Made by a program: the position numbers and the translations under genes. A stretch of 26,551 nt of DNA, from IMG/VR virus record IMGVR_UViG_3300043640_000350, positions 1-26,551 of that record, one strand, 5' to 3'. Positions 7,709 to 25,325 of the stretch are shown in pieces; the first letter of the stretch is position 1; each line of letters opens with the position of its first letter. The notes beneath the pieces are model-generated. The model was given only the letters and a program-made list of their open reading frames with translations, was not told the DNA's origin and did no database searches. The DNA comes from a virus (lineage: Duplodnaviria; Caudoviricetes).

Positions 7709-7885
7709 TCACAGGACGTGGGGCGTGACCCGGAAGAACAAGCGGGGGCTGGCGGTGCGCAACTCGTGGCGCCAGCGCTGGGCGGTCGGCTCCCAGTCGG
7801 ACCAAGCCCAGCCTGTGGCGTCGGGGCGCCGGGCGACGCGCCAATCCGCGCCGTCCCGGCTGACCTCGACCATCCACACGTTCAC
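7709..7885 (-). CDS. Hypothetical protein (58 aa)
   Basis: GTGA overlap with the upstream gene stop. Confidence 0.55.
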   Translation of the reverse strand: MNVWMVEVSRDGADWRVARRPDATGWAWSDWEPTAQRWRHELRTASPRLFFRVTPHVL

Positions 7886-8091: not shown

Positions 8092-8359
8092 CGTCCACGG
8101 GCGGGCTCATGGCGTCGATGAGGGCGTCCACGAAGTCGGCCACGGGGCGCTCGGATTCGCGGTACTCGGCCCAGTCCTGGCCGAAACCCTCGGCGTCTGC
8201 CTCCACCTCGTCGGGGTTGGCGCCACGTCGGGCCAGCTCGTCGCGAACGCTGTCCTCCCATGCCTGCTGGTCGCTGCGCACCCGGCAGCCACTGACGTGA
8301 CTGTCGCGGTCCAGCGGGCCACCACACACGGTGCACAGGACTTCCTCGCCAGCGTTCAT
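8084..8359 (-). CDS. Hypothetical protein with CxxC-x6-H-x3-C motif
   Basis: ATGA overlap; CTVCGGPLDRDSHVSGC. Confidence 0.65.
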   Translation of the reverse strand: MNAGEEVLCTVCGGPLDRDSHVSGCRVRSDQQAWEDSVRDELARRGANPDEVEADAEGFGQDWAEYRESERPVADFVDALIDAMSPPVDGE

Positions 8360-8559
8360 CGGTCAGCGACCTTGGCCACGGGTCGGACGGCGTCGTAAGC
8401 GACGGTCAGGCTGTCCTTGCCGTGGGCCTTGCCGACCGCCGGGTCGGTGTTCAGGCCAGTCCAGGCCACGCCGTATGCGAACCCGAAGTCGTGGACCACG
8501 GTGCCGGTATGGGCGCCGTCGTGCTCGATGCACTCGACTCGCTGCCTGGTGTCCGCCAT
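8356..8559 (-). CDS. Hypothetical beta-rich (SH3-like?) protein (67 aa)
   Basis: ATG at 8559 with GAGGGAAGGA RBS, downstream of promoter copy 6. Confidence 0.6.
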   Translation of the reverse strand: MADTRQRVECIEHDGAHTGTVVHDFGFAYGVAWTGLNTDPAVGKAHGKDSLTVAYDAVRPVAKVADR

Positions 8560-8599
8560 TTGGGGGTTCCTTCCCTCGGTCTCGAACCTTACAAAACCC

Positions 8600-8628
8600 A
8601 TTCAATCACGGGTGTGCCCCCGTGTCAA
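8600..8628 (-). promoter_or_regulatory. Conserved island promoter motif, copy 6
   Basis: TTGACA-CGGG-GGCAC-ACCCGTGA-TTGAAT-GGGTTT; near-identical to copy 4. Confidence 0.65.
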
Positions 8629-8647
8629 CCACCCACGGGGGCACACC
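8611..8647. repeat. Perfect 14-bp inverted repeat overlapping promoter copy 6
   Basis: GGTGTGCCCCCGTG (8611-8624), 9-nt loop, CACGGGGGCACACC (8634-8647). Confidence 0.85.
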
Positions 8648-8660
8648 TTCGGTGAACCTG

Positions 8661-9026
8661 TCAGGCGCCGTGGTCAAGGGTCTCGCGGTCGATCTGAACC
8701 GAGTCGCCGCGACCGGCGACCCGGAGCTGGCGGCCGTCCTCGGTGAAAGCGACTTCGTAGATGTGACCGTCCTCGGTGACCAGGCGGGCCTTGGTGACCA
8801 CCTTGTCGAGTTCGTTTTCGGTGGTGGTCTCGCCCTCGCCGCCGTCCTCCTCGGCTCTGGCCAGCGTGCGGGTGAGTCGGTTCAGGAACTCCTCGTCCTC
8901 GTGTTCGACGACGAGGTACGCGTTTTCGCGCCAGCCCAGCTCAGCGGCCGTGCTGGCAGCATCGTCGCGATTCTCCAGCGGTACGGCTTCGGTCGGGTTG
9001 TCGGCGTTCACCAGAGCGAGTGCCAT
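8661..9026 (-). CDS. Acidic hypothetical protein (121 aa)
   Basis: ATG at 9026 with AGGAAGGA RBS. Confidence 0.7.
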   Translation of the reverse strand: MALALVNADNPTEAVPLENRDDAASTAAELGWRENAYLVVEHEDEEFLNRLTRTLARAEEDGGEGETTTENELDKVVTKARLVTEDGHIYEVAFTEDGRQLRVAGRGDSVQIDRETLDHGA

Positions 9027-9049
9027 CGTGAACCGTCCTTCCTGTAGAG

Positions 9050-9081
9050 AAAAGGGTGGGGCCACCAGTCCAGCCCCACCC
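9050..9081 (-). terminator. Putative intrinsic terminator
   Basis: Minus strand GGGTGGGGC-N10-GCCCCACCC-TTTTCTCT, downstream of the 9110-9535 gene. Confidence 0.6.
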
Positions 9082-9109
9082 CCAGACGAGCACAAGGTTT
9101 GCCCGTTCG

Positions 9110-9535
9110 TCAAGTTCCATCTTCCTCCAGCGGCCAGGCCAGCCGGAACAGCCGGACGATCTGCAGCGCCTTGGTCCGGTACCGGTCGCGAGTCGCCTCG
9201 GTAAGGACGTGGGTCCACCAGTCCTCGAAGTCGATGACCGTCTCTCCGAAGTCGACCAACTGCTGAGCGGACAGGGTCCGGGCCGCCTGCTCGATCATGG
9301 TGACCAGGTTCGAGTCGTGGAACTTGATCCGGCGTAGCTCGTCGAGCAGGAACGCCCGGCAGACGGCACAGCCATTCATCGCGGCCTGGACTGCCGCCGG
9401 GGTGGATGCGTTCGTGTATTCAGCCTTGTGGCGGACGGCATGGATGGCATCGACGCGGATGATCTCGTTCATCACGAACAGCTCGGCGCCGGACAGGTCC
9501 TTCTCGTTCAGCTCGATGTCCTCGAATGCGCTCAC
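9110..9535 (-). CDS. Hypothetical helical protein (141 aa)
   Basis: GTGA overlap with the upstream gene, GGAG RBS; contains a CxxC. Confidence 0.7.
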   Translation of the reverse strand: MSAFEDIELNEKDLSGAELFVMNEIIRVDAIHAVRHKAEYTNASTPAAVQAAMNGCAVCRAFLLDELRRIKFHDSNLVTMIEQAARTLSAQQLVDFGETVIDFEDWWTHVLTEATRDRYRTKALQIVRLFRLAWPLEEDGT

Positions 9536-9720
9536 AGAGAACTCCGGTTCGGTAGGGCGGACAGGTCGGCGATCTCGTGATCGGCCTGCTCGAAGCTGAT
9601 CACGTCGTTGCGCAGGTGAGCCTGAAAAATGTCGGACATCAAGTCACCAAACTTGCGGGTGACCAGTTCGGCCAAGCGTTCGAGCTGGTCGGCGGTCGCG
9701 GCGTGCACGGTCATGGTCAC
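9532..9720 (-). CDS. Hypothetical protein (62 aa)
   Basis: GTG at 9720 with AGAGGGGA RBS, downstream of promoter copy 7. Confidence 0.6.
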   Translation of the reverse strand: MTMTVHAATADQLERLAELVTRKFGDLMSDIFQAHLRNDVISFEQADHEIADLSALPNRSSL

Positions 9721-9747
9721 GGGTCCATCCCCTCTGGGTCTGGGGCC

Positions 9748-9777
9748 AGCCAACACCCGTCCGTGCCTCGGTGTCAA
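9748..9777 (-). promoter_or_regulatory. Conserved island promoter motif, copy 7
   Basis: TTGACA-CCGA-GGCAC-GGACGGGTG-TTGGCT-GG. Confidence 0.6.
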
Positions 9778-9882
9778 CCATGCGCCGATGGCCGGTCTCG
9801 GCCGGGGGGTGTTTTACTTGGGGACAAGCGCGGCGGCCCGACCTGGCAGGTGGCCCGCCCACACAGGCCGGAGGCCGATCGC

Positions 9883-12800
9883 TTGAGCAAGCGCGGGATC
9901 GTAGCGGGCAGCAGTGCGACAGGACCGAAGGGTGGGACGTCAAGCCAGCCGAACACGCTGGGAAATGACGGAGGAATATCGCCGCTGCTGGCCCAGTATC
10001 AGCAGTGGACCATCGGATCCGGGAACACGTACGACCCGCTGCCCAGGTCGGCGGCCGAGTTCCTGCTGGGACAGTTCGGGCCACTGTCGCCCATCCAGCC
10101 GATGCCTATCGACGCGCCCCAGGGCGACCTGCACCGACCGGAGCCACGCAGGTTCCAGTACCCGGTCGGCTGGAACATGCCGCACAGCCCCCCGGGCACC
10201 GAGGGACTCAAGCTCACCGATTTCCCCACGCTGCGCACGTACGCGGACCTGTACTCGGTGGCCAGGTCCTGCATCCAGGTGCGCAAGAACGAGATCCGTG
10301 GCATCGAGTGGGACATCATCCCCACCAAAGAAGCCGAAAAGAAGATGCGCGGCGATGTCAAGGCGCACCAGGATTTTGGCGAACGCCGCGATAAGGTCCT
10401 GAAGTTCTTCAAGAAGCCGGACCCGGACTACCGCAATTTCTCAAGCTGGATCGACGCCCTGCTCGAAGACCATTTCGTGGTCGACGCGATGAGCCTGTAC
10501 GTTCACCCCAGCCGGGTCAAAGGAAAGGGCGTGCTTGGGTCGGACCTGGCCGCCCTGGAGATCATCGACGGGACGACCATCCGGCCGCTGCTGAACTTGC
10601 AGGGTGGCAAGCCCGCCCCGCCGTCCCCTGGATACCAGCAGTATCTGCAGGGCATCCCCCGGGTGGACCTGCTGACCTTGCTGACCGGCGAGGATATCAA
10701 GGATCTGGACAAACCCGCCCGTGAATACCGGGGCGACCAGCTGCTGTATCTGCCGTACACGGCCCGGTCCTGGACTCCGTACGGTTTCCCGGCGGTCGAA
10801 CGCACCATCGTGCCGATCCTGACCGGACTGCGCAGGCAGCAGTTCCAGCTCGACTATTTCGACGAGGGCACGCTACCGGGTGCGTACGTGAGCCCCGGCG
10901 AGAACAGCGGCTGGACCCCGAACCAAGTCCAGGAAATGCAGAACGGGCTGAACGCCATCGCTGGCGACCCGGCTTGGAAGCACAAGGTCATCGCCTTGCC
11001 GCCCGGCTCCAAGGTCGACCCCCAGCGGCCGGTAGAGCTGGCCAGCCAGTTCGACGAACTCACCATGAACATGGTTTGCATGGGTTTCGACGTGCAACCC
11101 CAAGAACTGGGCATCACGCCCAAGGCCAATTCCGGGACCATGGGCGGCAGTGCCCAGATGGCACAGGCCAGCGAGGACACCCAGGAACGCAAGGCCACCA
11201 AACCCCTGCTGTGGTGGCTTAAGACCTCGATCTTCGACGAGATCATCCAACAGACCCTCCAGCAGGAGGATATGCAGTTCATCTTCGAGGGTCTGGAGGA
11301 GGGCGAGGACGAGGCCACCAAGACAGAGGTTCTGACCAACCAGATCAAGACGGCTCTGCTATCGATCGACGAGGGTCGGGCCGAGCTGGGCAAGTCTCCC
11401 TGGGGTCTGCCGGAGACGTCCGACCCGGGTATCATGACGGCCAGCGGGTTCACCCCGCTCGGGCAGTACAACCCGATGACCGAGCAGCCGGGACCGCAAC
11501 CTGGCGAGCCGGATCCCAACGCACCGCCACCCGGCAGTCCGCCACCACCCGGGGCGCCACCTGGCACTCCGCCATCTCCCCCGACCATCCAGACCATCGG
11601 CCCAGGCAACAAGCCGCCAGCCCCCCCGCCGGGCACTGAGGCCGCCGAGGCAGGGGAAAAGGCCAAACCGGCGGCCAAGAAGCCAGCGGCCGGAGTGAAG
11701 GCCAAGGCCACCAAGGGCGAATTCATCGTCTCGGCCGAGGATGTCTCGCTCCTCAAACCGACGCTGGCCGAGCTGGACATGCTGGCGCGCCACCTGAACA
11801 AGGGCCGGGACCTGGACACATGGGAGTGCAGGTTCATCACCAAGAACCACCTGGACCTGATCGACCAGATGTTGAGTCTGGGCCAGCAGCCGTCCGACGT
11901 GATCGAGCGCCTGTCCACGCACGTGGAGAAGACGTGGAACGTGGTGTACGACGAGTCCAAGCACCCGCGCGGTGCTGGCGGACAGTTCGGCCAGACCAAC
12001 ACCGGGATATACGCGGGCAGCGAGAACGGCGCCATCGCGGTTCACTACAGCGGCAAGGCGCCACCGAAGGGTGCGGGCAAGAAGCCCAAGAAGAAGCCCA
12101 AGAAGGACGGCAAGAAGAAGCCCAAGAAGGGTGGCTCGACCAGTAACGCCCAAGCCGGGCCGATGACGATCAAGCCGGACAAGCCTGGTTCACCGGCGGC
12201 TGCCCAGCCCAAGACGCGTTTGCAGACTCAGCAGGAAGCGATGGCCAAGCTGCCACCGCCCAAAGCAAACGACCCGGTGGCTTGGGAGAACTACGATGAA
12301 TGGTACAACCAGTCTTCCGGTAAACACGACGGACAGCCAGACGTCGTAAAGGTCGGACCGAAGGGATATATTCACGGCTGGATCAAGGTCGAGGGTGGCA
12401 GCGACCATCCGCTGCTCGGTAACCACGATCCGAACCAGCGAGCCGCCGACGTGTGGTCCACCAACAAGGAAGCGATGGGCGCGGTGCGGCAGGCCGCCCG
12501 TAACAAGGCAGACGGGCGGCCGTGGCACGAGAACGCGGATGGCGCCGACCTGCGCAACGAGCCCGATTTTGTTGAGGGCGGTAGCGTTTATGGCGCCGGT
12601 GGCGACAAGTTCAGCGGCGAGGATTGGGAACATGAGGTCGCCTCGGCTGCCAGCCACCTGAACGAGTGGATGGGGCAGCAGAAACCGACAGGTGGCCCGC
12701 TGTACCGAGGCATGATGGTCACCCCGCCGGACGAGGATTCGACCGTTGAGGACATGTTCCCGCCCGGCATGGTGTTCGCCCATGACGTCAGTTCCTGGAC

Positions 12801-13056
12801 ACCTCAGGAAGACCAGGCGGTCGACTACGCGACGGCCAGCATGTACGACGACGATGAATACGCGTCGCCGGTAAAGCTGGTCATGCAGGACGGCTACGGC
12901 GTCGACATCGACCGGTTCAAGGCGGACAGCGCTTCGACCAAGGGCGACGGTGAGACGCTGTCCGGCGGCAAATTCGAGGTGGTCAGCGCCGAATGGGACG
13001 AGGACGACGAAGACGGTCCCTTGGTCGTTGTCGTGAAGAGAGTTGGTGACGCGTGA
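9883..13056 (+). CDS. Portal protein with long C-terminal extension ending in an ADP-ribosyltransferase-like domain (1057 aa)
   Basis: GGAGG RBS (9870-9874) and TTG at 9883. HK97-type portal motifs (IIDGTTIRP, PYGFPAVE, CMGFDVQPQELG, LSIDEGRAELG), then a Pro-rich linker, HPRxxGGQF, a Lys-rich tract, the KVGPKGYIHGW tag and LYRG..SSWT..DGE. Confidence 0.88.
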   Translation: MSKRGIVAGSSATGPKGGTSSQPNTLGNDGGISPLLAQYQQWTIGSGNTYDPLPRSAAEFLLGQFGPLSPIQPMPIDAPQGDLHRPEPRRFQYPVGWNMPHSPPGTEGLKLTDFPTLRTYADLYSVARSCIQVRKNEIRGIEWDIIPTKEAEKKMRGDVKAHQDFGERRDKVLKFFKKPDPDYRNFSSWIDALLEDHFVVDAMSLYVHPSRVKGKGVLGSDLAALEIIDGTTIRPLLNLQGGKPAPPSPGYQQYLQGIPRVDLLTLLTGEDIKDLDKPAREYRGDQLLYLPYTARSWTPYGFPAVERTIVPILTGLRRQQFQLDYFDEGTLPGAYVSPGENSGWTPNQVQEMQNGLNAIAGDPAWKHKVIALPPGSKVDPQRPVELASQFDELTMNMVCMGFDVQPQELGITPKANSGTMGGSAQMAQASEDTQERKATKPLLWWLKTSIFDEIIQQTLQQEDMQFIFEGLEEGEDEATKTEVLTNQIKTALLSIDEGRAELGKSPWGLPETSDPGIMTASGFTPLGQYNPMTEQPGPQPGEPDPNAPPPGSPPPPGAPPGTPPSPPTIQTIGPGNKPPAPPPGTEAAEAGEKAKPAAKKPAAGVKAKATKGEFIVSAEDVSLLKPTLAELDMLARHLNKGRDLDTWECRFITKNHLDLIDQMLSLGQQPSDVIERLSTHVEKTWNVVYDESKHPRGAGGQFGQTNTGIYAGSENGAIAVHYSGKAPPKGAGKKPKKKPKKDGKKKPKKGGSTSNAQAGPMTIKPDKPGSPAAAQPKTRLQTQQEAMAKLPPPKANDPVAWENYDEWYNQSSGKHDGQPDVVKVGPKGYIHGWIKVEGGSDHPLLGNHDPNQRAADVWSTNKEAMGAVRQAARNKADGRPWHENADGADLRNEPDFVEGGSVYGAGGDKFSGEDWEHEVASAASHLNEWMGQQKPTGGPLYRGMMVTPPDEDSTVEDMFPPGMVFAHDVSSWTPQEDQAVDYATASMYDDDEYASPVKLVMQDGYGVDIDRFKADSASTKGDGETLSGGKFEVVSAEWDEDDEDGPLVVVVKRVGDA
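12349..12384 (+). repeat. Shared coding tag, copy 1 (KVGPKGYIHGWI)
   Basis: Same peptide recurs at 14580, 15749 and 16696 with synonymous divergence. Confidence 0.95.
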
Positions 13057-15320
13057 CCAGCAAGGCCGTACGGGACGCCATCCAGGCGGCGATGGACCAA
13101 CCGCTGGCCCGGCCCAAAAAGAAGCGCAAAGCGACCAAATCGGGCGTCCCTCATACCGCCGATACCCCGAGCGACGAAGCGATAGCCGAACGGGGCCGGG
13201 AATACTGGCGAACCCACGTGGCCTGGGGACATCCGGGCGACTTCATGGAGTGCGTCCGGGGCGTGATGGAGCACGCCGGGATGTCCGAAGCCAACGCCAA
13301 GGGCTATTGCAACCTGCGTCACCACGAGGTTACCGGTGAATACGCTGGCCGGGGTGCCCACAAGTTCGTGGACGCCACTGTCCTGAAGATGGTCGAAGTC
13401 GAGATCGGGAAGACGGTGCCGGGTGAACGAGCTGAACACAAACCGCCGGGTTTTGGCACTCCACGGGACAATCGGCGACGGTTCCGGGCTGGCGTGGGAA
13501 AACCAGGGGTTCACGGTGGGTTTTCGCCCGGTGAACGGGACCACGAACCCCTGCAAGTGGGTTCCGAGCACGACCTGAACGACGTCGACATGGACGTTGT
13601 GGAAAACCGTCGGCACCGTGCCCCGGGCGAGGATGGACACAACCCCAACGAGGCCGGGGACGGCATTCCCGCCGATACCAATGACCCACGGGAGAACAGT
13701 CAGCACGTGGTGGCCGACGCCATTCACGACCATGAGAACGGTAGCGACATCGGGAGCGGGAATCTCCCAAAAGCGCTGGGCCCTGGGCGGGCTACGAGGG
13801 ACTTCCCGGGATGGCGGTATGACCAAGCGCTGGCGATTCACTACAGCCGGACGCTGGCCGCCTGCGGTGTTCTGGTCGACACCGAGGCAATAGCCGACCA
13901 GTGGCTGAGAGCCAACAAGGCCGAGGGGCAGACCCCGCCAGGCGGTGACCCAAAGCCCTGGGTCGCGGCGCAGGTGGCCCGCTGGTCGGTATCGTTGCGG
14001 CAAATGTTGAACGAACTCTGGCGTGAGGGCTGGTTCCTCGGTGCCAAATCGGGCCGAGCGGTGGTGGCCGCGAAAGACCCGGATTGGGGCGATTGGTCCC
14101 CCGGCAACCCGACCGCCGCCCGGATCGTACGAACATCCAAGGACCTGAGACGCTGGCTCAACACGTACGGCGTCGCTACCATCCGGTCGATCGAAGACAA
14201 CCGGATGAACGAGCTGGCCAAGGCGCTGCACCTGTCGTTGAAGGAGGGCTGGGCATCCGACACGCTGGCTCGTTACATTGAGAACATTCTGATAAACCCA
14301 AACAGGGCTCGGATGATCGCCCGTACCGAAACGGCCAGGGCGGTCAGCCAGGGCACGTTGTCCGAGTATCGGCACGCGGACGTCGGCCGGGTTCAGTGGG
14401 TCACCGCCGACGACACCACGGTCTGCGTCCCCTGCGACGCGAACGAGGCGATGGGCGCCATCCCCACGGGTTCGGTCTTCGGTGGCACGAGTACCGACGC
14501 CCCCCCTGGTCACCCGAATTGTCGTTGTGCAATAATCGCCGTGCCGGACGGCATGGAGGTCCCGCCCCGTGCGGTCACCAAGGTCGGCCCCAAAGGATAC
14601 GTCCACGGATGGATCTTTGTGGGGGCGCCGGGTGTCGGAGGCCGAGTGTTCCATCCGCACCACGGACACGGCACGGTGGCCGAACACCGTGGTGATTCGG
14701 CATCGGTTCATTTCGACGGGGGGCATAAGGCCGAATTCGTTACCGGTCATCACAACGGTTCTGCCCGAATTGAGAGAGTTCCTGGACTGTCCGGCGACGA
14801 AGCGTTCGAATCGGTACCCAGATTCCATCGGAGAAAGCTCACTGACGAACAGGATGAGGCACTCGACCTGTACACCAGGAGCGGCTATGTTCCGATCAAC
14901 AAGCATTTGCGGCACGGGGCAGCCGCCAGCGACGAGGACAAATCAACGATCCGGGAACTCGACGGATTGTTCGATTTGGTGCCAGCGCTGGAACGCCCGA
15001 TCGAAGTGCACCGGGGATTCCGGGATGCGGACACGGTATTTGGCGCCTCCGGCAGCAAAGTTGGCGAGACGTTCGTTGACAAAGCCTTTGCTAGTTCCAC
15101 TACCGACCGGTCGATCACGGTCGGGTTCACTCATGGACCGACGCCCGGGGTTGTTACCAAAATTCACGTACCAGCGGGAAGGAAGGCCATCCGGCCGAGC
15201 GTCAGCCTGGATTATTTCGCTGGGGAACACGAAGTACTGCTACCCCGGGAGACGCGGTTCCGGGTGATCAGTGACAACGGCGAGGGCAGCGACCGAGTCA
15301 TCGAGCTGGAGGTCTTGTGA
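13053..15320 (+). CDS. MuF / SPP1 gp7-like minor head protein with C-terminal VIP2-type ADP-ribosyltransferase
   Basis: RARMIARTETARA, WVTADD..VCVPC and PPGHPNCRC (MuF). YT..GY..IN..LR, VHRG, FASST and EHEVLLPR (R-S-E ART). Confidence 0.92.
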   Translation: MTSKAVRDAIQAAMDQPLARPKKKRKATKSGVPHTADTPSDEAIAERGREYWRTHVAWGHPGDFMECVRGVMEHAGMSEANAKGYCNLRHHEVTGEYAGRGAHKFVDATVLKMVEVEIGKTVPGERAEHKPPGFGTPRDNRRRFRAGVGKPGVHGGFSPGERDHEPLQVGSEHDLNDVDMDVVENRRHRAPGEDGHNPNEAGDGIPADTNDPRENSQHVVADAIHDHENGSDIGSGNLPKALGPGRATRDFPGWRYDQALAIHYSRTLAACGVLVDTEAIADQWLRANKAEGQTPPGGDPKPWVAAQVARWSVSLRQMLNELWREGWFLGAKSGRAVVAAKDPDWGDWSPGNPTAARIVRTSKDLRRWLNTYGVATIRSIEDNRMNELAKALHLSLKEGWASDTLARYIENILINPNRARMIARTETARAVSQGTLSEYRHADVGRVQWVTADDTTVCVPCDANEAMGAIPTGSVFGGTSTDAPPGHPNCRCAIIAVPDGMEVPPRAVTKVGPKGYVHGWIFVGAPGVGGRVFHPHHGHGTVAEHRGDSASVHFDGGHKAEFVTGHHNGSARIERVPGLSGDEAFESVPRFHRRKLTDEQDEALDLYTRSGYVPINKHLRHGAAASDEDKSTIRELDGLFDLVPALERPIEVHRGFRDADTVFGASGSKVGETFVDKAFASSTTDRSITVGFTHGPTPGVVTKIHVPAGRKAIRPSVSLDYFAGEHEVLLPRETRFRVISDNGEGSDRVIELEVL
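14580..14729 (+). repeat. Shared tag plus Tudor-like module, copy 2
   Basis: KVGPKGYVHGWIFVGAPGVGGRVFHPHHGHGTVAEHRGDSASVHFDGGHK. Confidence 0.95.
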
Positions 15321-16609
15321 CCGAGAACATGGTCTGGTCTCCTGACGATGTCGTCTGGGAAACAGGCGACGTCATCAAGTTCAGCCCGGGGGCGGTTCAC
15401 GACAAACTGTCGGGTCACTATCCGGACAAGGTGCTGGGTTGGGTCAGGGACGCCAAATGGTCCAGCCCCGAGGACGTCCCGCTCAAGCAGATCGACATGG
15501 CGCGGCGTCCCGGCGGCCGAGACATGAAGAAGGTTCGCGGGATGGCGCGGGCCATCAAGGACGGCAAGAAGATGGACCCGATCTTCCTGGTCGAGACTCC
15601 AGGCGACGGTCCGTACGTGATTGCCGACGGATACCACCGGGCATTGGCCCATCAGCACGCCGGTAAACCGACCATCAGTGCCCACGTCGGCGTTGTCGAC
15701 GACGAGGACGGACCTTGGGACCGGGCGATGCACGACGCCAAGCTGAACAAGGTCGGGCCCAAGGGCTACGAGCACAATTGGGTATTCGTTGGCGTGCCTG
15801 GCGCTGGCGGCCGGGTGTTTCACCCCCACCACGGGCACGGCACAGTGAACGAACACCGAGGCGACTCGGTATCAGTTCATTTCGACTCGGGCCACAAGGC
15901 CGACTTCGCTGCTGGTCACGGCCACGGCGAACCGAAGCTGCAGCCCAGACCGGAGCATTTCGACGATAGTTCGTTCAGCACGGCTCCGAATTGGAAACGT
16001 GTGGAAATCCGGGGTGGCAAGCCAGGGAAGATGGTTTACCAGGCTGGTCAGCGCGTACCGGAGGGTCTACCGACCGAGCTGGTCACGGAGACTCGCCGGA
16101 TGACGTTCGGCGGTATCCATAGCCGGGTTTCCAAGATACTCAGGTCTGGCCGGGTTCCGACCGACGACGACACGACCACGATGAATACCGGTACGATCGC
16201 TGAGTACCCGGTGTCTCTGGGCGATGTGGTTCGCAAAATGGATCAGGCGATCGAGCGCGGCCAGTTGTCCGAGGATACCGAGCTTTGGCGTACGATGCAG
16301 CTCACAGGTACCGAGGTGGGCGAGTTTGTGCCCGGGTTCGAATACGGCGATTTGGCGTACACCTCGACGGCCATGCAACGTTCAGGGGCGCAGCTGGTGG
16401 CCGACGCCAAGCACAAACACCAGAAGAAGACCGGGACACTGGATCCGGGCAAACAATGGGCGATGTTTCGTATCCTGGCCCGAAAAGGCCAGCACGTCAC
16501 GTATGCGGACACCCACAACAAAATCCGGGAGATCATACTGCCCAGGGGGAGCAAATTCCGGGTGGTCGACGTGGCACAGGACGGGACGATATCGGTGGTG
16601 CTGTCGTGA
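15317..16609 (+). CDS. ParB/Srx-like domain fused to an ADP-ribosyltransferase-like domain
   Basis: DPIFLV...YVIADGYHRALA (ParB/Srx). LWRT, AYTST and IREIILPRGSKFRV (ART). GTGA overlap. Confidence 0.85.
   Translation: MTENMVWSPDDVVWETGDVIKFSPGAVHDKLSGHYPDKVLGWVRDAKWSSPEDVPLKQIDMARRPGGRDMKKVRGMARAIKDGKKMDPIFLVETPGDGPYVIADGYHRALAHQHAGKPTISAHVGVVDDEDGPWDRAMHDAKLNKVGPKGYEHNWVFVGVPGAGGRVFHPHHGHGTVNEHRGDSVSVHFDSGHKADFAAGHGHGEPKLQPRPEHFDDSSFSTAPNWKRVEIRGGKPGKMVYQAGQRVPEGLPTELVTETRRMTFGGIHSRVSKILRSGRVPTDDDTTTMNTGTIAEYPVSLGDVVRKMDQAIERGQLSEDTELWRTMQLTGTEVGEFVPGFEYGDLAYTSTAMQRSGAQLVADAKHKHQKKTGTLDPGKQWAMFRILARKGQHVTYADTHNKIREIILPRGSKFRVVDVAQDGTISVVLS
15749..15898 (+). repeat. Shared tag plus Tudor-like module, copy 3
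   Basis: KVGPKGYEHNWVFVGVPGAGGRVFHPHHGHGTVNEHRGDSVSVHFDSGHK. Confidence 0.95.
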
Positions 16610-18081
16610 ACGAAGAAGACCAGCGCATCCAGGCCGCGTCCGACCGACTGACCGGGCAGTTTTCGGACTTGGTAGAAATTGGCACGAAGGTTGAAAAAGT
16701 CGGACCAAAGGGATATATCCACGGTTGGATCTTCGTCGGACCGGAAGCCCCCGGGGGGCGGGTCTTCCACCACAGTCACGGTCACGGCACGGTGGCCAGC
16801 CACGATCGGCCCGAGGGCGGCGAGCACGGCCAGGTGCAGGTTCATTTCGACTCGGGCCACAAGGAGACGTACCGGGCCAGGTTCAAGCCGAGCAGCAAAC
16901 CACGCCTGTACGGGCCGGTCGAGCCGGACCAGCCAAAACCGAAACTGAAGCCCGCGCGTACCAAGCCCGGAGCGCCGGACGTACCGGACGCGCCAAAGCC
17001 CCCCGGAGGGCTGGAATACCAGGGCATGAAGGTATTCCAGGACGGCAAACGGATCGGGCTGGTGTTCGGCCCGGACAGCAAGGGCAAATTCCACTACCAG
17101 GACGAGGACGGCGCGAACGCCAGGCGCTTTGGCTCGTTCGACAAGGCTGCCCTGGCGTTGCAGGCCGCGAATAAAACCCGGGCAGAAGAACACCAGAAGG
17201 CCCTGGATGAGGCGGAACGTATAAAGCAGCAACACGATCACGCGTTGCTGCTGGCCGAGAAGCACATCTTTGGACCACGACGTGACGCGTTCACCAATGT
17301 GCGGTCCAAGTCGGCCACTCAGGCGGCCAAGATAAAAGCGCGCAGAAAGCGCATCGTCGACATGTACGGAAAGAACCTGAAGATTCACGAGGATCCAGGC
17401 ACCTCCGTGGTCGACAAGCACATGAGAGAGTTTTTCTCGATTCCCGAGTCGCACCACAAGATCATTGCCGCTCAGGGATACCGGATCGACGTCGGAACCG
17501 AGACCGTGGAGGACTATCACCCCGAGCTGGCAGGGGCAAAACCCGGTGGATACACCGAGGGCACTTCCTTCCGGGACAGCGCTGGGGCGCATCAATCGGG
17601 ATCCAGTACCACCCAGCCCTGGATGGTCTTCGGGAACACGGTGGGGCATGGCAGCCATGCGATGGTGCCGCACGAATTGGGCCACGCGCTCGATGCTTCA
17701 CTGGGGAGCGACGGTTCCTATTTCTCAGACCAGCGCCAATCGCCCTGGGGCGGGGGGTTCATGTCGTACTTCAACGGTTTGAACGATTACGACAAGGAAA
17801 AACTGGCTGGCAGTTTCCAGGATTTCAGTGATCCGACAAACAGTTCGTACATTCCGTTGGCGCCGTATTATCGGGACACGACCCATGGCGGTCACGGCAA
17901 CGGAAATGTGGAAATGTTCGCGGAGGCATACAGCGCGTATGTCACCTCGCCCAAGCCCAAACGAGCCGAGGCCGTCAGCCGGACGCTCAAGAGCGGCGTG
18001 TTCGATGGCGATGATCACGTGGGGAAGATGCTGACCGAGTACTTCGATGACCTGACTGAATGGCTGGAGGCCAACGGATGA
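16606..18081 (+). CDS. Tagged protein with C-terminal HExxH zinc metallopeptidase (491 aa)
   Basis: GTGA overlap at 16606. VPHELGHALD (His codons at 17671 and 17683) and EMFAEAY (17911) give the lethal-factor-like zincin pattern. Confidence 0.85.
   Translation: MNEEDQRIQAASDRLTGQFSDLVEIGTKVEKVGPKGYIHGWIFVGPEAPGGRVFHHSHGHGTVASHDRPEGGEHGQVQVHFDSGHKETYRARFKPSSKPRLYGPVEPDQPKPKLKPARTKPGAPDVPDAPKPPGGLEYQGMKVFQDGKRIGLVFGPDSKGKFHYQDEDGANARRFGSFDKAALALQAANKTRAEEHQKALDEAERIKQQHDHALLLAEKHIFGPRRDAFTNVRSKSATQAAKIKARRKRIVDMYGKNLKIHEDPGTSVVDKHMREFFSIPESHHKIIAAQGYRIDVGTETVEDYHPELAGAKPGGYTEGTSFRDSAGAHQSGSSTTQPWMVFGNTVGHGSHAMVPHELGHALDASLGSDGSYFSDQRQSPWGGGFMSYFNGLNDYDKEKLAGSFQDFSDPTNSSYIPLAPYYRDTTHGGHGNGNVEMFAEAYSAYVTSPKPKRAEAVSRTLKSGVFDGDDHVGKMLTEYFDDLTEWLEANG
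16696..16863 (+). repeat. Shared tag plus Tudor-like module, copy 4
   Basis: KVGPKGYIHGWIFVGPEAPGGRVFHHSHGHGTVASHDRPEGGEHGQVQVHFDSGHK. Confidence 0.95.
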
Positions 18082-18642: not shown

Positions 18643-19263
18643 ATGCCGTTCTCCACCCTCGGTCTGAACAAGATGCTGGAGGGTCTGGAAGTCGCCACTT
18701 CCATGATCGCGTTCGCCAGCCTCCACACTTCGTACAGTGCCACCGGCACGCCCGGCGAGCTTACCGGCGGGTCGCCTGCGTACGCTCGTAAGGCGATCAC
18801 CTGGGCCACGGCCTCGACCGGTTCCAAGGCCGCGAACGGCACGCTGCCCACTTTCGACATTCCGCCGTCCACCACGGTCGCGTTCGTCGGCTTGTGGAGC
18901 CTGGTTACGGGCGGCACGTTCGCCGGGATGGGCGCCAACGGCGGTGCCACCCAGTTCGCGTTCACCTGTACGCTGGCCAGCCCTGGCAGTTTCACCGCTC
19001 CGGGCAGTTCCTACTCAGTGAATGACACGGTCGTGTTGTTCCCCGGTGTGGGGGCGACACTGCCGACCGGAACCACGGCGGGCACGGTTTACTACGTCGG
19101 CACCGTAACGGGAGCCGTGTTCACCCTGTCCACCACTTTGGCCAACGCCAACCCGGTGAATACCAGCACAGTCGGTGCCGGAATCGTTCAGAAGGTCACC
19201 ACCGAGACGTTCAACGCCCAGGGCACGTTCACGCTGTCCGCCGATACCCTGACCGTCGTCTGA
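18643..19263 (+). CDS. Virion structural protein (fibre/decoration-associated)
   Basis: AAAGGAG RBS; T/G/A-rich; ASLHT..G..GE.TGG..YARK..W pattern seen in phage fibre-associated proteins. Confidence 0.65.
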   Translation: MPFSTLGLNKMLEGLEVATSMIAFASLHTSYSATGTPGELTGGSPAYARKAITWATASTGSKAANGTLPTFDIPPSTTVAFVGLWSLVTGGTFAGMGANGGATQFAFTCTLASPGSFTAPGSSYSVNDTVVLFPGVGATLPTGTTAGTVYYVGTVTGAVFTLSTTLANANPVNTSTVGAGIVQKVTTETFNAQGTFTLSADTLTVV

Positions 19264-19267
19264 TCCG

Positions 19268-21313
19268 GTGGCCGTAGCCCTCGTCGGGACCAGTAGCGGC
19301 TCAGCCAGCGCAACATCGGCTACCATCCCGTGGGGGGTGACCCCTCCGGGTGGGGGGTCGCCAGTAAACCCGTCCGCTGGCGACCTCGCTGTTCTGTTCT
19401 GGGAGCATCTCAGTACCGACACACCGACCGACCCGACTGGATTCACGCTAAAGGACAGCACCAATACTCCAGCAGGGTCGGGCACCACCCGGTTCCTTAT
19501 CAAAGTTTGTACCGGTAGTGAGACCGGCAACATCACCATCGCCAGCAGCACGGCGAACAAGCTCACCGGGGCCTTGCTGTTGTTCAACGGCGTCGACGGA
19601 ACCACCCCCATCGACGGGTTCAACAGCCGTGCCGCAACGGCCAGCGGCACGGCCTGGCCCTGCGTGGGCGTGGTCACCACAGTGGCGAACTGTGCAGCGG
19701 TATCGGCGTCGATGTCCCGGGTCACTACTGGGCCGACCACCATGACCACTGTCGCTCCATTCACCCGACAGGAGACCACGGTCGGGTGGATCGCCGGTGG
19801 TGGCGCCACTCAGGTCTCAGCGGCGACCAACCTCACCCCGTATTCGTCCGGTGCCACAGTCACCCCGCCGAACTGGACCTCAAACCTTTCCACCAACGCG
19901 TACGTGACCTGGACCGTCACGATCCGGCCCAGCAGCGCACCCGCGTTCAGCGACCCCAGCGCTGTCCGGGCCACCGGCTCGATGAGCCCGATCGGAGCCA
20001 AAGGGGGAGTAAATTCGAGCGCCGTCCGAGGCACGGCCTCGACGGTTCCAGCAGGCAAAAAGACCGGAATCACCACCAACGCGATTCGGGCCACCGGAGC
20101 GACGGCGGCCACCGGCCGGAAGGTGGCCAGCAACTCGACCACCATTCAGGGAACCGGAACCGACTCGCCGAACGGGGTAAAGAAAGCGTCCGGTTCTGGT
20201 CGCACGTCGGCCACCAGTTCGGCTACGGCGAGCGCCGGTCCGGCGGGCCATACGGGCACGTCGGCCATCCGAGGCACGAGTAACAACGTCCCGCAGGGAC
20301 GGAAGGCCGCACAGACGGCCGTCGTGACCACGGGGACGGCCTCGGACGTTCCCAGGGGGTCCAAGGCCACATCCGGGTCTTCCCGCGTCCTCGGAGGCAC
20401 GAGGATGGCCTCCGCCGGTGCCAAGATCGCGACCGGTTCCAGCGCCGTCCGAACCTCTGGTTCGGTGTTCCCAGTCGGAAATCGCGGGGCAACCGGGACT
20501 TCCCGCATCGCGGGCGGTGCCACGCTGCTGGCGACTGCTGTCCGGCGGGCGTCCGGTCTGGTGGTGGTGACCGGCACTGGCCGGATATCGCCGTCTCAGC
20601 AGAACGCGGTGCAGGGTCTGGCGCAGATCCTGGCCACCGGAACGCTTGCCCCGTCCGGAATCCGCCATGCGTTCGGTTCGTCCTCGATTTCGGCTGGCGG
20701 GCTGCTGGTCGTCCAGACGGTTCACGGTGCGGTCGGCTCGGCCCGGCTGGCAGCAGGTGGCGCGCTGCGGTCGACCGGATTGCATACCGCCGTCGGGTCT
20801 GGTCGGATAGTTGCTGGATCTCTCGACTCCGCATCGGGTAGCAAGAGCGTCACGGCTCTGTCGACTATCCGCGCTGCTGGGCTGATCCACTCGGCCGGTT
20901 CCCGAAATGCCATCGGCGTGGTTGTCACTGAGGGGACCGGCCGAGCTGTGTCCGCCGGGTTGAAGCGGGCCAGCGGCGCGACCCGGCTGCTGACACAAGG
21001 AACGCTGACAAGCGCTGGCTCCCGGGCGGTATTTGGACTGTCCCGGATAACCGCGTCCGGCTTGATGGTCATCACCACCTTCAACCCAGCCGATCTGATC
21101 CAGCCCCTGATCGTATTGACCATCGCTCACGGGGACGATGGTGGTTCGTGGCTGGCTGGCCGGGAGAACTTCCTGCTGATGGCCGTCCCCCTGGAGGTCG
21201 GTATGTCTTACAGTTCACCGGACGACATCTATCCGCCCCGGGCGATTGAGACCGAGGACGAAGTCATCCTGATCTATCTTGAGCCCACCATCGTCCTTAC
21301 CCGGGGCGGCTGA
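19268..21313 (+). CDS. Fibre-like virion protein with ~19-aa repeats
   Basis: N-terminal ~220-aa beta-rich domain, then many degenerate G-x-S-x-[IV]-x-[AG]-[TG]-G-x5-G-x-[KR] repeats. Confidence 0.65.
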   Translation: MAVALVGTSSGSASATSATIPWGVTPPGGGSPVNPSAGDLAVLFWEHLSTDTPTDPTGFTLKDSTNTPAGSGTTRFLIKVCTGSETGNITIASSTANKLTGALLLFNGVDGTTPIDGFNSRAATASGTAWPCVGVVTTVANCAAVSASMSRVTTGPTTMTTVAPFTRQETTVGWIAGGGATQVSAATNLTPYSSGATVTPPNWTSNLSTNAYVTWTVTIRPSSAPAFSDPSAVRATGSMSPIGAKGGVNSSAVRGTASTVPAGKKTGITTNAIRATGATAATGRKVASNSTTIQGTGTDSPNGVKKASGSGRTSATSSATASAGPAGHTGTSAIRGTSNNVPQGRKAAQTAVVTTGTASDVPRGSKATSGSSRVLGGTRMASAGAKIATGSSAVRTSGSVFPVGNRGATGTSRIAGGATLLATAVRRASGLVVVTGTGRISPSQQNAVQGLAQILATGTLAPSGIRHAFGSSSISAGGLLVVQTVHGAVGSARLAAGGALRSTGLHTAVGSGRIVAGSLDSASGSKSVTALSTIRAAGLIHSAGSRNAIGVVVTEGTGRAVSAGLKRASGATRLLTQGTLTSAGSRAVFGLSRITASGLMVITTFNPADLIQPLIVLTIAHGDDGGSWLAGRENFLLMAVPLEVGMSYSSPDDIYPPRAIETEDEVILIYLEPTIVLTRGG

Positions 21314-21369: not shown

Positions 21370-23418
21370 ATGGCGACCACTGTGGACGGAGTCCAGAGCA
21401 CGGCCACCTTCAGTTTCCCCATCACCCGCAAGGAATACACCCCGGACGGGGACTTGCTGGTATTCGGCAAGGCGACAGATGGCACAGTCGACTCCGACAA
21501 CCAGATCGTCGACCCCGAATGGTCCGGCAAGGCCCTACAGGAGTGGCTCGCCACGGGCGGCAATGTCCGGGTCCAGCACAGCCCCCACCTTTATCCGGCG
21601 GGTAAAGGCGTAGAGGTCGTTGTTGGCAAGGACGGCGCCCATTGGGTCCGTTCCATGATCGTCGAGTCCACGGCCAAGAACCTGGTCGAAAAGGGTGTTC
21701 TGACCTCCTACTCGGTCGGTATCGCTCGCCCCCAGATCGTGCGTTCTTATGAGGCTCCGGGCGGCAAGATCGTCGGTGGGATCATCGCCGAGTTGTCCCT
21801 GGTCGACCGGCCAGCAAACAAAAACTGCGCGTTTGAACTTTGCAAGTCCGCTGTCGACGGCCAGATCGAGTTCGTCGGCAAGATGCACACGTTCACCGAG
21901 ATCGACGGCCAGAAATCCGAGGACGGTATGCCGACTTTCACCCCCAAAGACCTGGCCAACGTGGTCAACAAGCGAGAAGCAGCCGCCGACCTGTCCAAGG
22001 GAGCGAAGGATTGCCCCAACTGCGGATCCAGCTTCGACGCGGACAGCAGCTTGCGCTCCTGCTCCGATTGCGGAACCAAGCTGCCCAAGGGCGACAAGGC
22101 AGCCGACGCCGATCTGGAAGAGCGCGAGGACGCCGACCTCGAAAAGGGCAGCATGCCCCCACAGTTCGCGGCGAACGCCAAGAAGAAGACCGACGGCGAC
22201 GAGGAAGACGACGACTCCGAATCGTCCGACTCGGACAAACCCGCATTCCTGACGGGAAAGTCGGCTCAGCCCACCGACGGCGTAAAGGCCAAGGACAGCA
22301 AGCCCCTGCCGCGTCACCGCGAGCCGGATGGCGGCCAGGTGGCAGCACTGGAGAGCGACGCGGGTCTGGGCACCGAGGGCGAAGGTGCCAGCGACGGGCT
22401 GCCCAACGGCATTTGGTCCGAAAACCGTGGATCCAACACCCCGGACACGATGAAGTCCGCCAGCTACTCGGTGAACCGACTGCACGATGCCCTGTGCTCG
22501 GCGTACCACATCGACGACATCATGGGCGAATACCCCACGATGAAGGGCCTTGTAGGCGCCATGAACGACGCCTGGGCCGACCTGGACACTGAGACCCGCC
22601 AGATCGTCAAGGGCGTCGGTGAGGCCGCCAGCATGGACGGTACCAACACCGACACGATGATCCTGGACGAGGCACGGGCGACCCTGTCCAAGTCGTTCGG
22701 CGAGATGTATCCGAACGTGCACGTCACGCCCGGCAAGATCACTGCCGGGCAGTTCACCCGGCCGTACCTGTCGGCGGGCCACCCCCAGCTCTCCATCCAG
22801 GGTCCGGCTCACATGCCGGGACCGGGCGACGCCAGCTTCGGGTCGACCCAGACGATGCGGGACGCCAGCCAGTTCAACCGGTCCAACATCACCGCCGGGC
22901 ACGCCTCGACCAGCCCCGGTTCGGCCGGTAACAACGGCAACTCGATCCCCGGATCCCGTCCGGCGGGTCCCCGGCTGGCGGCGGCGGCCAAGGCACAGGC
23001 CGCGAACGCGATGCGGGTACTGCACGACCACCTGGCTGCCAATCACCCGTACCTTTGCCCGATGTCCCCGGGCACTCCCGCACAGATCGGCGCAGTGGCC
23101 AAGGCCAGCACCACGGCGGAGACGGCCGAACTGCGCGGTCTGGTGGAGAAGCAGGCGGGCGAACTCAGCGAACTTCGGGCGATGGTCGACCAGCTCGGCT
23201 CTCAGCCCGACCCAAACGTCGCTCCCCATCGGGGAGTGGTCACCAAATCCGCCTCTGGTGGAACCGGGCCAGCGGACCGGCGGTCCCTGGTCGAAGAGGC
23301 ACTGACAGCAGAAGATCGGGAACGGGCGAAGTTCTACGGAGCTATCGCCGCGAGTGGAGATGCCGGGTTGCGGGAAGCAGCACAGCGAGTTCTCCGTAAC
23401 CAGACACCCACGAACTGA
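21370..23418 (+). CDS. HK97-type prohead protease fused to a scaffold-like region
   Basis: VDSDNQIVD, VRVQH, YSVG and ELSLVDRPAN motifs; then a CxxC..CxxC ribbon, acidic low-complexity sequence and a C-terminal coiled coil. Lies directly before the capsid gene. Confidence 0.88.
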   Translation: MATTVDGVQSTATFSFPITRKEYTPDGDLLVFGKATDGTVDSDNQIVDPEWSGKALQEWLATGGNVRVQHSPHLYPAGKGVEVVVGKDGAHWVRSMIVESTAKNLVEKGVLTSYSVGIARPQIVRSYEAPGGKIVGGIIAELSLVDRPANKNCAFELCKSAVDGQIEFVGKMHTFTEIDGQKSEDGMPTFTPKDLANVVNKREAAADLSKGAKDCPNCGSSFDADSSLRSCSDCGTKLPKGDKAADADLEEREDADLEKGSMPPQFAANAKKKTDGDEEDDDSESSDSDKPAFLTGKSAQPTDGVKAKDSKPLPRHREPDGGQVAALESDAGLGTEGEGASDGLPNGIWSENRGSNTPDTMKSASYSVNRLHDALCSAYHIDDIMGEYPTMKGLVGAMNDAWADLDTETRQIVKGVGEAASMDGTNTDTMILDEARATLSKSFGEMYPNVHVTPGKITAGQFTRPYLSAGHPQLSIQGPAHMPGPGDASFGSTQTMRDASQFNRSNITAGHASTSPGSAGNNGNSIPGSRPAGPRLAAAAKAQAANAMRVLHDHLAANHPYLCPMSPGTPAQIGAVAKASTTAETAELRGLVEKQAGELSELRAMVDQLGSQPDPNVAPHRGVVTKSASGGTGPADRRSLVEEALTAEDRERAKFYGAIAASGDAGLREAAQRVLRNQTPTN

Positions 23419-23450: not shown

Positions 23451-25325
23451 ATGCAGGTGGCCGAGATCGTGGACACCAGCGCCAATCCGGCTGGCGGCAC
23501 TGCCGTAGCCGACGAGGCGAAGTGGTACAACAGCGCGGGCGACATGCTCACGAACCGGCTCCCCGAGCTGGTCAAGGGCGCGGGTTTTGCCCGTCCGGGC
23601 GGCAATCAGCCGCTCACCGACGAGAAAGAGATCCTGGACCGCGCGTTCCTCGCCAACAAGGCGATCAAGGCGTCGGTGACCAAGTCTCACACCGACCCGC
23701 AGTCGGTCGTGGCCGGGATCAACCCCGCGTTCTCCAGTCAGTTCGGGGCGTTCACCGCCGCGATGGGGATGCCGGGCCAGAACCCGATGAAGCAGATGAC
23801 CGACCAGGTCTCGACGATCCTGTCCGAGGCGCTCGGCAAGAACATCACCCTGAACTCGCCGCTGGCGGGTTCGGCGCTCGGGTCGGCTGGTTTCGTGCCC
23901 TACGACCTGGTCAGCCCCTCGCGGCTCATCTACCCGGTCTACAGCCCGCTGCGGAACAAGATTCCGCGTGTGCCGGGCCAGGGCACCAGCCGCCAGGCCA
24001 AGGTCGTCACCGGCATCTCCGGTTCGGGTACGGGCAGCGCCGGTCAGTTCATCGACATCAGCTCCGCCGAGACCACCCCGCAGTCCAACAACTACGGCAC
24101 GAACATGCCGGGCACTACGGGCAGCCAGTCGGCCACCCAGATCAACGTGCCGTACAAGTTCTTCGCGCTGTCCGAGTCCCTGTCGTGGCTGGCCCAGTTC
24201 TCGGGTCAGGGCTTCGAGGACATCTCGGCGCTGGCGAACCTGATCCTCCTTCAGGAGTTCATGCTGAACGAGGAAGCGGCGATGATCGCGGGTACCACGA
24301 CCGCCATCGCCGCTCCCACCACGGCCGTCACGCTGGCCCTGCGCACCGCCGGGGCGAACGAGACCGGTCTGCCCGCATCGTCCCACTTCTGGGTCACGGT
24401 CACCGCTGCGAACTATTTCGGCGAGACCGTGATGAACACCCAGTCGGCCGACCTCGGCGCCGTTCTGGGCACCCAGGTCATCGACGTCACGCTGCCCCAG
24501 AACCTGCCCGCCGGGGCGATGTTCTGGAACGTTTACGTGAACAACCAGGCCGCCGGTGCCCCGACCCAGTCCACCATGTACCGGTATGCCACCGGCATCG
24601 GCGGACGTCGGCTCACCGTTCAGGGTCCGACCATTCCCAACTCGGTGACCCCGGCGACGCCGAATCCGCCGGTCACGGCCGGACCGACCAACGGCGCAAA
24701 CCGGATCACCGGCATCATCCCGACCCTTGCGGGTCAGGACACCGGCGCCGGTTACCCGACGGGCGTCGGCTGGCAGGCCGGGTACTACAACCCGAACGTC
24801 GGGACGCACCTGACGTACAACAGCGTCTACCAGATGCTGAACGGGTTGTGGAACGGCGACCCCAAGTACGGCAACGTGGGTGGCGCGTTCAAGGCCGACC
24901 CGTCCGAGCTGATCGGTAACAGCACGGATATCATGAACCTGTCCAACGACGTGCTGCAGGTCGGTGCCGCGACCAACTACCGGCTCACGGTCGAGCAGGG
25001 CGACACCTCCGGGGTTCGCATCGGTGCGGCCGTCAGTGAGTTCCAGAACCCGGTCACCCGGTCGGTTCTGAAGCTCCTGGTTCACCCGTGGTGGCCTCAG
25101 GGCACGGTCGCGGGCATGTCCTACTCGCTCCCGTTCTCTTGGTCCAACATCTCCAACGTCTGGGAGATGACCATGGTCCAGGACTACCTGAGCATCTCTT
25201 GGCCCGTTATCGACCCGACGTTCCGCTACTCGATGTTCATGTACGGCGCCCTGGTCTGCAACGCCCCCCAGTACTGCGGGCTCATGCAGGGCATCCAGGC
25301 GTCTGACCTGACCCCCTTCGCGTGA
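23451..25325 (+). CDS. Major capsid protein with internal beta-sandwich insertion
   Basis: AGGAAGG RBS, position after protease, strong codon bias. YDL..P..LIYP..SPLRNKIPRV and EEAAMIAG are HK97-fold MCP-like, ending GALVCNAPQYCG..QGI. Confidence 0.85.
   Translation: MQVAEIVDTSANPAGGTAVADEAKWYNSAGDMLTNRLPELVKGAGFARPGGNQPLTDEKEILDRAFLANKAIKASVTKSHTDPQSVVAGINPAFSSQFGAFTAAMGMPGQNPMKQMTDQVSTILSEALGKNITLNSPLAGSALGSAGFVPYDLVSPSRLIYPVYSPLRNKIPRVPGQGTSRQAKVVTGISGSGTGSAGQFIDISSAETTPQSNNYGTNMPGTTGSQSATQINVPYKFFALSESLSWLAQFSGQGFEDISALANLILLQEFMLNEEAAMIAGTTTAIAAPTTAVTLALRTAGANETGLPASSHFWVTVTAANYFGETVMNTQSADLGAVLGTQVIDVTLPQNLPAGAMFWNVYVNNQAAGAPTQSTMYRYATGIGGRRLTVQGPTIPNSVTPATPNPPVTAGPTNGANRITGIIPTLAGQDTGAGYPTGVGWQAGYYNPNVGTHLTYNSVYQMLNGLWNGDPKYGNVGGAFKADPSELIGNSTDIMNLSNDVLQVGAATNYRLTVEQGDTSGVRIGAAVSEFQNPVTRSVLKLLVHPWWPQGTVAGMSYSLPFSWSNISNVWEMTMVQDYLSISWPVIDPTFRYSMFMYGALVCNAPQYCGLMQGIQASDLTPFA

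Follow-up and report, generated by a model that had tools for sequence, protein, structure and literature searches.

Head-packaged phage enzymes are well known; how many unrelated cargo proteins are loaded, released and aimed is the question raised by the head genes of IMGVR_UViG_3300043640_000350, a virus record (Duplodnaviria; Caudoviricetes) analysed here over its whole 26,551 bases, which we call the window. Three consecutive genes of this record each carry a short leader tag (KVGPKGYxH[GN]W), a Tudor-like module behind it and then an ADP-ribosyltransferase (ART), an ART-like domain or a peptidase (Table 1), and the first-pass annotation had suggested that the module aims these enzymes at host RNA polymerase (RNAP). 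We favour another reading, to which we give about an even chance: tag and module would form a constant N-terminal header on interchangeable head cargo, and its role would lie in loading, holding or ejection, not in aiming at RNAP. Since the tag upstream is constant and the enzyme downstream varies, the layout is that of a delivery header on polymorphic cargo. This reading is supported by the coupling of tag and module, the change of the tag where a module follows, the cut-site signature, the unconstrained cargo, the swap point and the altered RNAP-contact residues.

The GGRVFH-type motif is in frame in all three genes in which it had been reported, and every copy begins 19 residues past the Lys of the tag. 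A loose form of the motif, searched in six frames, gave exactly 3 matches in the window and 0 in 300 triplet shuffles of it. Copies 1 and 2 agree at 28/31 residues but at just 75/93 bases, the codons differing at 13 of the 28 shared residues; hence, their likeness is maintained at the protein level. In copy 3, 6 extra residues lie between strands 2 and 3. Behind the portal tag at 12349, where no module had been seen, we likewise found unrelated sequence. As a separate observation, copies 2 and 3 have an exact 25-nucleotide stretch in common (15875-15899 and 16840-16864), whereas elsewhere copies 1 and 2 are the closer pair; recent recombination between modules is possible.

Structure prediction, profile comparison and structure comparison agree on a Tudor-like fold for the module, as had been proposed: a five-stranded barrel of ~50 amino acids (AlphaFold2, AF2, copy 1; predicted local distance difference test, pLDDT, 76). 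The core positions given earlier take in only strands 1-3 and the start of strand 4, and the predicted domain runs ~17 residues further, to strand 5. Its closest solved relative is the C-terminal domain (CTD) of UvrD/PcrA (E=3.5e-8), and an Atlas model of copy 2 compares with UvrD-family clusters at a template modelling score of about 0.6. With the PcrA, UvrD and UvrD1 CTDs (PF21196; PDB 5DMA, 6YI2, 7EGS, 7EGT, 9DQS) the module shares the barrel as predicted, the GxxVxHxxxGxGxV...VxF signature of strands 1-3, the His of PcrA H681 and a Phe-to-core spacing of 8 in the strand 3-4 hairpin (84/103 phage modules, 26/28 host domains). The C-terminal Tudor of mycobacterial UvrD1 is already described in the accessible text of PMC11975281.

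The first-pass annotation had spoken of a CarD/Mfd/UvrD-type resemblance; its UvrD/PcrA part holds, its CarD part extends over strands 1-2 only, and its Mfd part falls away. HHalign matched the module to the CarD RNAP-interaction domain (PF02559) at 88.9% over 23 columns, all in strands 1-2, and the host UvrD CTD reaches CarD similarly (76% over 21 columns). The Mfd RNAP-interaction domain did not match (HHalign probability 1.7%, or 9% with the 103-sequence alignment). Among 20 family members, PF02559 matched 6 (best E 0.05) and PF21196 matched 5 weakly (best E 0.004). The window copies gave no match to PF21196 up to E=10 and did not reach its gathering cut-off of 23.9 bits, and the virus's own record had none (0/1).

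The module also departs from each of these relatives. Compared with the PcrA/UvrD CTD, it has His at the W684 position and another residue at K712 (A, A and E in the window, mostly His in the family), a long variable loop instead of the LLxYAP linker of strands 4-5, and a place near the N-terminus of the predicted processed cargo, behind the tag, whereas the UvrD domain sits at the C-terminus of a superfamily 1 helicase; in a rough tree the phage modules form a separate group. Alignment with CarD/CdnL ends after strand 2, the strand-4 Pro is missing, and ART, ART-like or peptidase regions come next in place of the helical promoter-binding C-terminal domain of CarD. The translocase of Mfd is absent.

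Tag and module go together, with the reservation that the loci examined (L001-L050) were fetched by the tag and are biased towards this coupling: of 34 distinct modules in these loci, 28 stand behind a strict tag, 4 behind a tag variant and 1 behind another short leader, and 1 is cut by the locus edge. Seen from the other side, a module follows 17 of the 50 tags in viral loci, and the tag changes with it. Position 13 of the tag is F or Y in 15/17 tags with a module vs 9/33 without, and Lys in 0/17 vs 16/33 (viral loci only, Fisher p=6e-5, related phages not being independent). AF2 models the tag as an extra strand over residues 7-14, at modest confidence (pLDDT 68 overall).

The tag is preceded by what appears to be a protease site. 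Two residues before the tag Lys stands L, V or I in 49/50 tags, and L/V/I/M occupy that position at 17.5% of all 6298 Lys in 154 proteins. In 10 proteins (P0035, P0044, P0064, P0065, P0077, P0081, P0083, P0090, P0094 and P0136) the tag is instead preceded by [IV][EDN]L, and this motif occurs elsewhere in them at 2.19 per 1000 amino acids vs 0.16 in 81 proteins with the Lys-type site (14 times). By these counts [IV][EDN]L is a lineage-specific junction motif, as expected of prohead protease sites. Six other proteins use an Arg site. The specificity of the protease thus appears to differ among related phages while the tag stays constant. In the window, the likely cutter at [LVI]xK is the prohead protease-scaffold protein, whose gene itself contains 8 matches to this pattern.

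Other leaders occur nearby. At about 11929-11990, the portal extension has a second short leader-like motif with His-Pro-Arg after V-E-K, and in one further locus (L031) a leader of the His-Pro-Arg type heads a Tudor module; the system may have at least two leader types. The ParB-like gene opens (15317-15376) with a W-x-P/A-G/D-D-V/I-x-W motif followed by a V-I-K site, and the same motif opens the MuF proteins of P0004, P0005, P0007, P0008 and P0009. It is a candidate removable targeting peptide.

Behind the module, the cargo varies widely. We found that 101 segments downstream of the module fall into 51 clusters: one of 18 (phrog_8314, an unknown domain), one of 12 (phrog_1752, on head proteins), one of 9 (unknown), 5 ARTs, 5 GNAT-like proteins, 6 pairs and 40 singletons. 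Matches include ART, GNAT, metallopeptidase (ATLF-like) and kinase-like domains; of the 97 proteins scanned, 66 match nothing in Pfam at 1e-3, and in one case (P0069) the module lies inside a protease gene. Hence, the module is not tied to ARTs and a peptidase as the earlier account had it: it precedes 51 unrelated cargo clusters, and the ART-like tail of the portal has no module. The point of exchange is sharp. In alignments of the window copy-2 protein with all 6 of its close relatives, similarity is lost at residues 206-215, immediately after strand 5; the ART lies outside every one of them. The copy-3 module is 77% identical to that of P0009, which bears a phrog_8314-type domain and not a peptidase.

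A module without any partner could produce the same picture, as a stable folding spacer whose conserved DNA is a homology handle for cargo swapping. The swap points directly after the module and the 25-nucleotide stretch common to copies 2 and 3 fit such a spacer; the invariant surface His and Gly and the synonymous divergence of copies 1 and 2 instead indicate selection on the protein surface, and we regard a mere spacer as very improbable.

Beyond the window, a profile search returned 488 proteins at E<=0.001, 150 of which were listed. Among 153 module-bearing proteins, 97 have a strict tag upstream and 56 do not, 7 of these 56 being tag variants or fragments by eye. The 37 untagged proteins that were scanned include helicases, ARTs, one fusion to RNAP alpha-CTD and sigma-4 domains (P0153), and five proteins with RhoGEF, EF-hand (2), START or NIPA domains (5/37), often with tandem copies of the signature and probably eukaryotic. 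Hence, the signature is generic, and the pattern alone does not imply RNAP binding. Six untagged proteins (P0039, P0068, P0085, P0102, P0111 and P0118) have 2-4 tandem UvrD/CarD-like Tudors; five of them exceed 1100 amino acids and two have an ART domain. The phage module is one family of at least 100 proteins. Tag plus module was absent from isolated phages (best match E=5 among 50,697 phage records), and among the genome collection the tag was found one time, where a Mycobacterium metagenome-assembled genome has a prophage-like head module (L050). An actinobacterial host fits this single occurrence, which is no proof of it.

The residues by which helicases of this type bind RNAP bear directly on the aiming proposal. 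In PcrA, H681A, W684A, K712A and L714A each severely lower RNAP binding, and W684A nearly abolishes it (PMC5397179). We counted these positions in 103 tag-plus-module segments from 100 proteins and in 28 actinobacterial UvrD CTDs parsed from 31 loci. The H681 position is His in 103/103 modules (the selecting pattern demanded His) and 3/3 window copies. At the W684 position, where host UvrD is aromatic in 28/28, the modules have His in 79% (3/3 in the window) and an aromatic residue in 5/103. Host UvrD has Lys at K712 in 26/28 and keeps L714 in 28/28. In a gap-free register, the modules have His (50), Ala (22), Arg (15) or Lys (6, of 103) at the K712 position, with A, A and E in the window, and Phe in 97% of the family at the L714 position, with F, F and Y in the window. 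A one-gap register, produced by HMMER and HHalign with two glycines aligned, brings the Lys of the window's GHK onto K712 in 3/3 copies; Lys then stands at K712 in 19/103, the L714 position becomes E, D and T in the window (S/T/A/D in the family), and Lys and a hydrophobic residue occur together in 0/103. We favour the gap-free register on these alignments. The counts look alike in 59 representatives that are not near-duplicates and in 27 tag-selected modules.

The beta1 domain of RNAP beta binds CarD and Mfd, as far as the accessible text of PMC5397179 goes, and CarD-family contacts include a strand-3 aromatic residue and a Pro closing strand 4 (P49/P51; PMC4182748, in the part available). 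The UvrD and CarD sites on beta differ, and the label 'CarD/Mfd/UvrD-type' covers two distinct interfaces. The strand-4 Pro is present in 20/20 and 26/26 host CarD/Mfd domains, in 9/103 modules and in 0/3 window copies, the mapping being inferred from the core hydrophobic residue. On the host side, actinobacterial RpoB N-terminal regions (25/25, from loci L132-L162) have their sole TGE in beta1, and the full helicase-interaction motif occurs in 0 of these 25. The TGE-containing beta1 hairpin is presumably the CarD contact. With its sole N-terminal TGE in beta1, actinobacterial RpoB raises a separate question: does the UvrD1 of these bacteria bind RNAP at the domain used by CarD, or does it not bind RNAP at all?

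RNAP docking would have the injected module bind beta, most plausibly at the TGE-containing beta1 hairpin, and either bring the ARTs and the peptidase to it or displace CarD. The top sequence and fold matches, UvrD CTDs solved with an RNAP lobe or UvrB, speak for it, as do the sole TGE in the domain bound by CarD and Mfd, the invariant H681, the Phe at L714, the Lys that the one-gap register places on K712, the Alt-like match and ExE motif of the MuF-fused ART, and the union of this Tudor type with RNAP alpha-CTD and sigma-4 domains in P0153. It has to contend, however, with His for W684, with K712 and L714 being kept together in neither register, with the missing strand-4 Pro, with RpoB regions that lack the full helicase-interaction motif, with a signature that is not diagnostic, and with the unlikelihood of one target for 51 cargo clusters. 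Because the residues needed by PcrA are changed, the inference of docking is weak, and by this comparison both docking on RNAP and competition with CarD seem unlikely. We give an equally low chance to a universal address label, in which the His-relined groove of a UvrD-type Tudor would grip the beta1 TGE hairpin and deliver any recombined enzyme to the transcription machinery. In that case a large group of actinobacterial-type phages would carry the label at the released N-terminus of dozens of different enzymes that they inject.

The groove might be relined for a different ligand. His makes up 14.9% of the module core vs 4.3% of the same proteins and 3.5% of host CTDs; each window copy has 7-8 His, and 40/103 modules have His at all three groove positions. 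Such a surface could bind nucleic acid or metal, so that cargo would ride on the packaged DNA or be held and released by metal or pH, and the E. coli UvrD CTD binds DNA weakly according to the accessible text of PMC7585439. The net charge of the core is low, though (median +1; -1, -1 and -2 in the window copies), and the window copies lack the third groove His, which leaves this reading rather improbable; it overlaps with a delivery header if the ligand is packaged DNA. Another host partner, such as UvrB or another protein with a TGE-type hairpin, the ribosome, the nucleoid or a membrane protein, might gather the released enzymes where the DNA enters. No candidate was identified, the module was never seen apart from a leader in these phages, and it is conserved across many phages, where we would expect a host-facing surface to change fast; we think this improbable too, slightly more so than a DNA or metal ligand.

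We return to the delivery header, which would work as follows. Cargo genes would be made late, from one coupled head operon, whose gene order and overlaps are seen in the window. Their polyproteins would enter the prohead, as the MuF and portal fusions and known precedent suggest, and the prohead protease would cut after [LVI]xK, so that, by the motif statistics, the pieces would start VGPKGY. In the tag subtype that ends W-I-[FY]-V-G, the tag strand would pack on the Tudor barrel to give a header of ~65 amino acids, and the UvrD-type groove of this header, relined with His, would bind a partner common to all cargo. That partner would most likely be on the phage side, whether another header, the inside of the head, or the portal or ejection channel. 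New enzymes may be recombined in directly after strand 5, where the swap point lies, and once in the host, each cargo enzyme's own domains would determine its targets.

Several results weigh against this header. The tag occurs without a module in 33/50 cases and works without it there, so the module is not essential for loading. Many recognised cargo proteins are protein-modifying enzymes, which would also suit a host-targeting module, and the groove seems to be kept for a ligand (H681 invariant, K712 position mostly His or Arg). The nearest solved relatives are all UvrD CTDs. No phage-side partner was identified, a pattern for TGE-type hairpins giving 0 matches in 426,591 amino acids of phage-locus reading frames and none in the window's + strand. 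Lys-type proteins show no enrichment of [LVI]xK over L-type ones (6.3 vs 5.8 per 1000 amino acids). Gene order, coupling, residue changes and the swap point are seen directly, the fold is predicted, and the phage-side partner, the cutting, the packaging and the ejection are all steps that we infer.

The record that holds these genes is linear, with a completeness estimate of 28%. Its gene order runs dUTPase, terminase, small reverse-strand genes, portal, MuF-ART, ParB-like/ART-like, zincin-like peptidase, prohead protease-scaffold and probable capsid, and GTGA overlaps join consecutive genes from portal through peptidase. The true portal start is probably later than 9577.

Table 1. Head genes, leader tags and Tudor-like modules of the window, in order of position
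Feature	Positions	Strand	Matches and remarks
Portal protein with C-terminal cargo extension	9577..13056	+	phrog_2662 E=2e-47, PF04860 E=3e-8
Leader tag in portal extension, Lys-type (WIKV), no module behind	12349..12390	+	
MuF head protein fused to tag, Tudor module and Vip2/Alt-type ART	13053..15320	+	PF04233 E=1e-11, PF03496 E=3e-15
Leader tag 1, after V-T-K (predicted protease site)	14580..14624	+	
Tudor-like module copy 1 (core 14637-14729), between MuF domain and ART	14628..14780	+	AF2, profile match to UvrD CTD 7EGT
ParB-like domain, tag, Tudor module, diverged ART-like domain	15317..16609	+	weak matches only
Leader tag 2, after L-N-K (predicted protease site)	15749..15793	+	
Tudor-like module copy 2 (core 15806-15898), ParB-like gene	15797..15950	+	28/31 residues as copy 1
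Tag, Tudor module, linker, zincin-like metallopeptidase (HELGH, about 17422-17946)	16606..18081	+	phrog_4415 peptidase E=3e-7
Leader tag 3, after V-E-K (predicted protease site)	16696..16740	+	
Tudor-like module copy 3 (core 16753-16863, 6-residue insert), peptidase gene	16744..16914	+	in-frame motif
Prohead protease-scaffold gene	21370..23418	+	phrog_3270 head maturation protease E=7e-4, phrog_21715 E=3e-8
Probable major capsid protein, inferred from position	23451..25325	+	phrog_13692 (unknown function) E=3e-62; distant phage matches

The description of the cargo enzymes as ARTs and a peptidase is borne out. The ART of the MuF gene (about 14829-15272) matches phrog_802 (Alt-like, E=1e-6) and Vip2 (E=2e-5) and keeps its motifs intact (HRG, SSTT and EHE; R-S-E type with ExE), and the third gene has a zincin-like peptidase, which matches PF07737 under the cut-off (E=0.005). 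The second gene is only the weaker, ART-like case: it has WRT, TSTA and IRE, the first Glu of ExE missing, and weak matches to phrog_1033 (E=0.006), phrog_3895 (E=0.007), PF03496 (E=0.018) and PF02195 (E=0.25). The ART-like region of the portal extension is known from motifs alone, family searches having given no ART match there. Alt modifies the alpha subunit of RNAP, and we know of no Tudor docking domain in Alt or ModA. The MuF-fused ART has the R-S-E and ExE motifs of T4 Alt-type ARTs, and RNAP modification by it is an analogy only.

Further features surround these genes. Between terminase and portal, about 6 kb (3400-9560) hold mostly small reverse-strand genes, one of them (6490-7407) a DUF6011/phrog_636 gene. 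The stretch from the cargo genes to the protease (18643-21313) contains a phrog_240 head-protein gene and a repeat protein of 681 amino acids rich in Thr, Ser, Gly and Ala. The protease-scaffold gene has a double zinc-ribbon (CxxC...CxxC) at 22009-22092, flanked by two [LVI]xK sites. The MuF protein begins with a small domain (13180-13360; phrog_6439, E=2e-9), and a similar stretch opens the protease gene of the Mycobacterium locus just before the tag.

Known systems offer close parallels. ARTs and metallopeptidases fused to MuF and portal proteins are already described in the accessible text of PMC5512222 and PMC9503650; with these effectors and the polyvalent proteins, our genes share ART, zincin metallopeptidase, GNAT and ParB-like domains on head proteins, which are thought to be packaged and injected. 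As in MuF-fused effectors, the enzyme lies C-terminal to MuF (PF04233 and PF03496 in one gene) and between portal and protease. The available main texts of these two papers contain 'Tudor' 0 times and 'SH3' 0 times, and describe no shared tag-plus-Tudor header. T4 provides the precedent of a targeting peptide (CTS) and protease processing of head cargo (PMC9026906, accessible text). Like Alt and the CTS, our system would combine a head-packaged ART, prohead protease processing and a short peptide common to unrelated cargo (PMC9026906 and PMC9503650, in the parts available). In T4, however, the CTS is removed by the cut, whereas the tag here lies after the predicted cut and would be retained. 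Subscription papers and supplements aside, the literature search turned up no account of the tag or of phage cargo with a Tudor header.

Hence, the module is a known domain type in an undescribed setting, and the G-x-x-V-x-H-P-x-x-G-x-G signature by itself is no indicator of RNAP binding. Since the module gives at least 100 cargo proteins a constant, folded header and cargo changes abruptly behind it, deletion, point-mutant and reporter-fusion tests are easy to design. Should the module prove a delivery header, it could be moved to other proteins to load them into actinophage heads; should it bind RNAP, it would give the phages a general means of targeting during host takeover.

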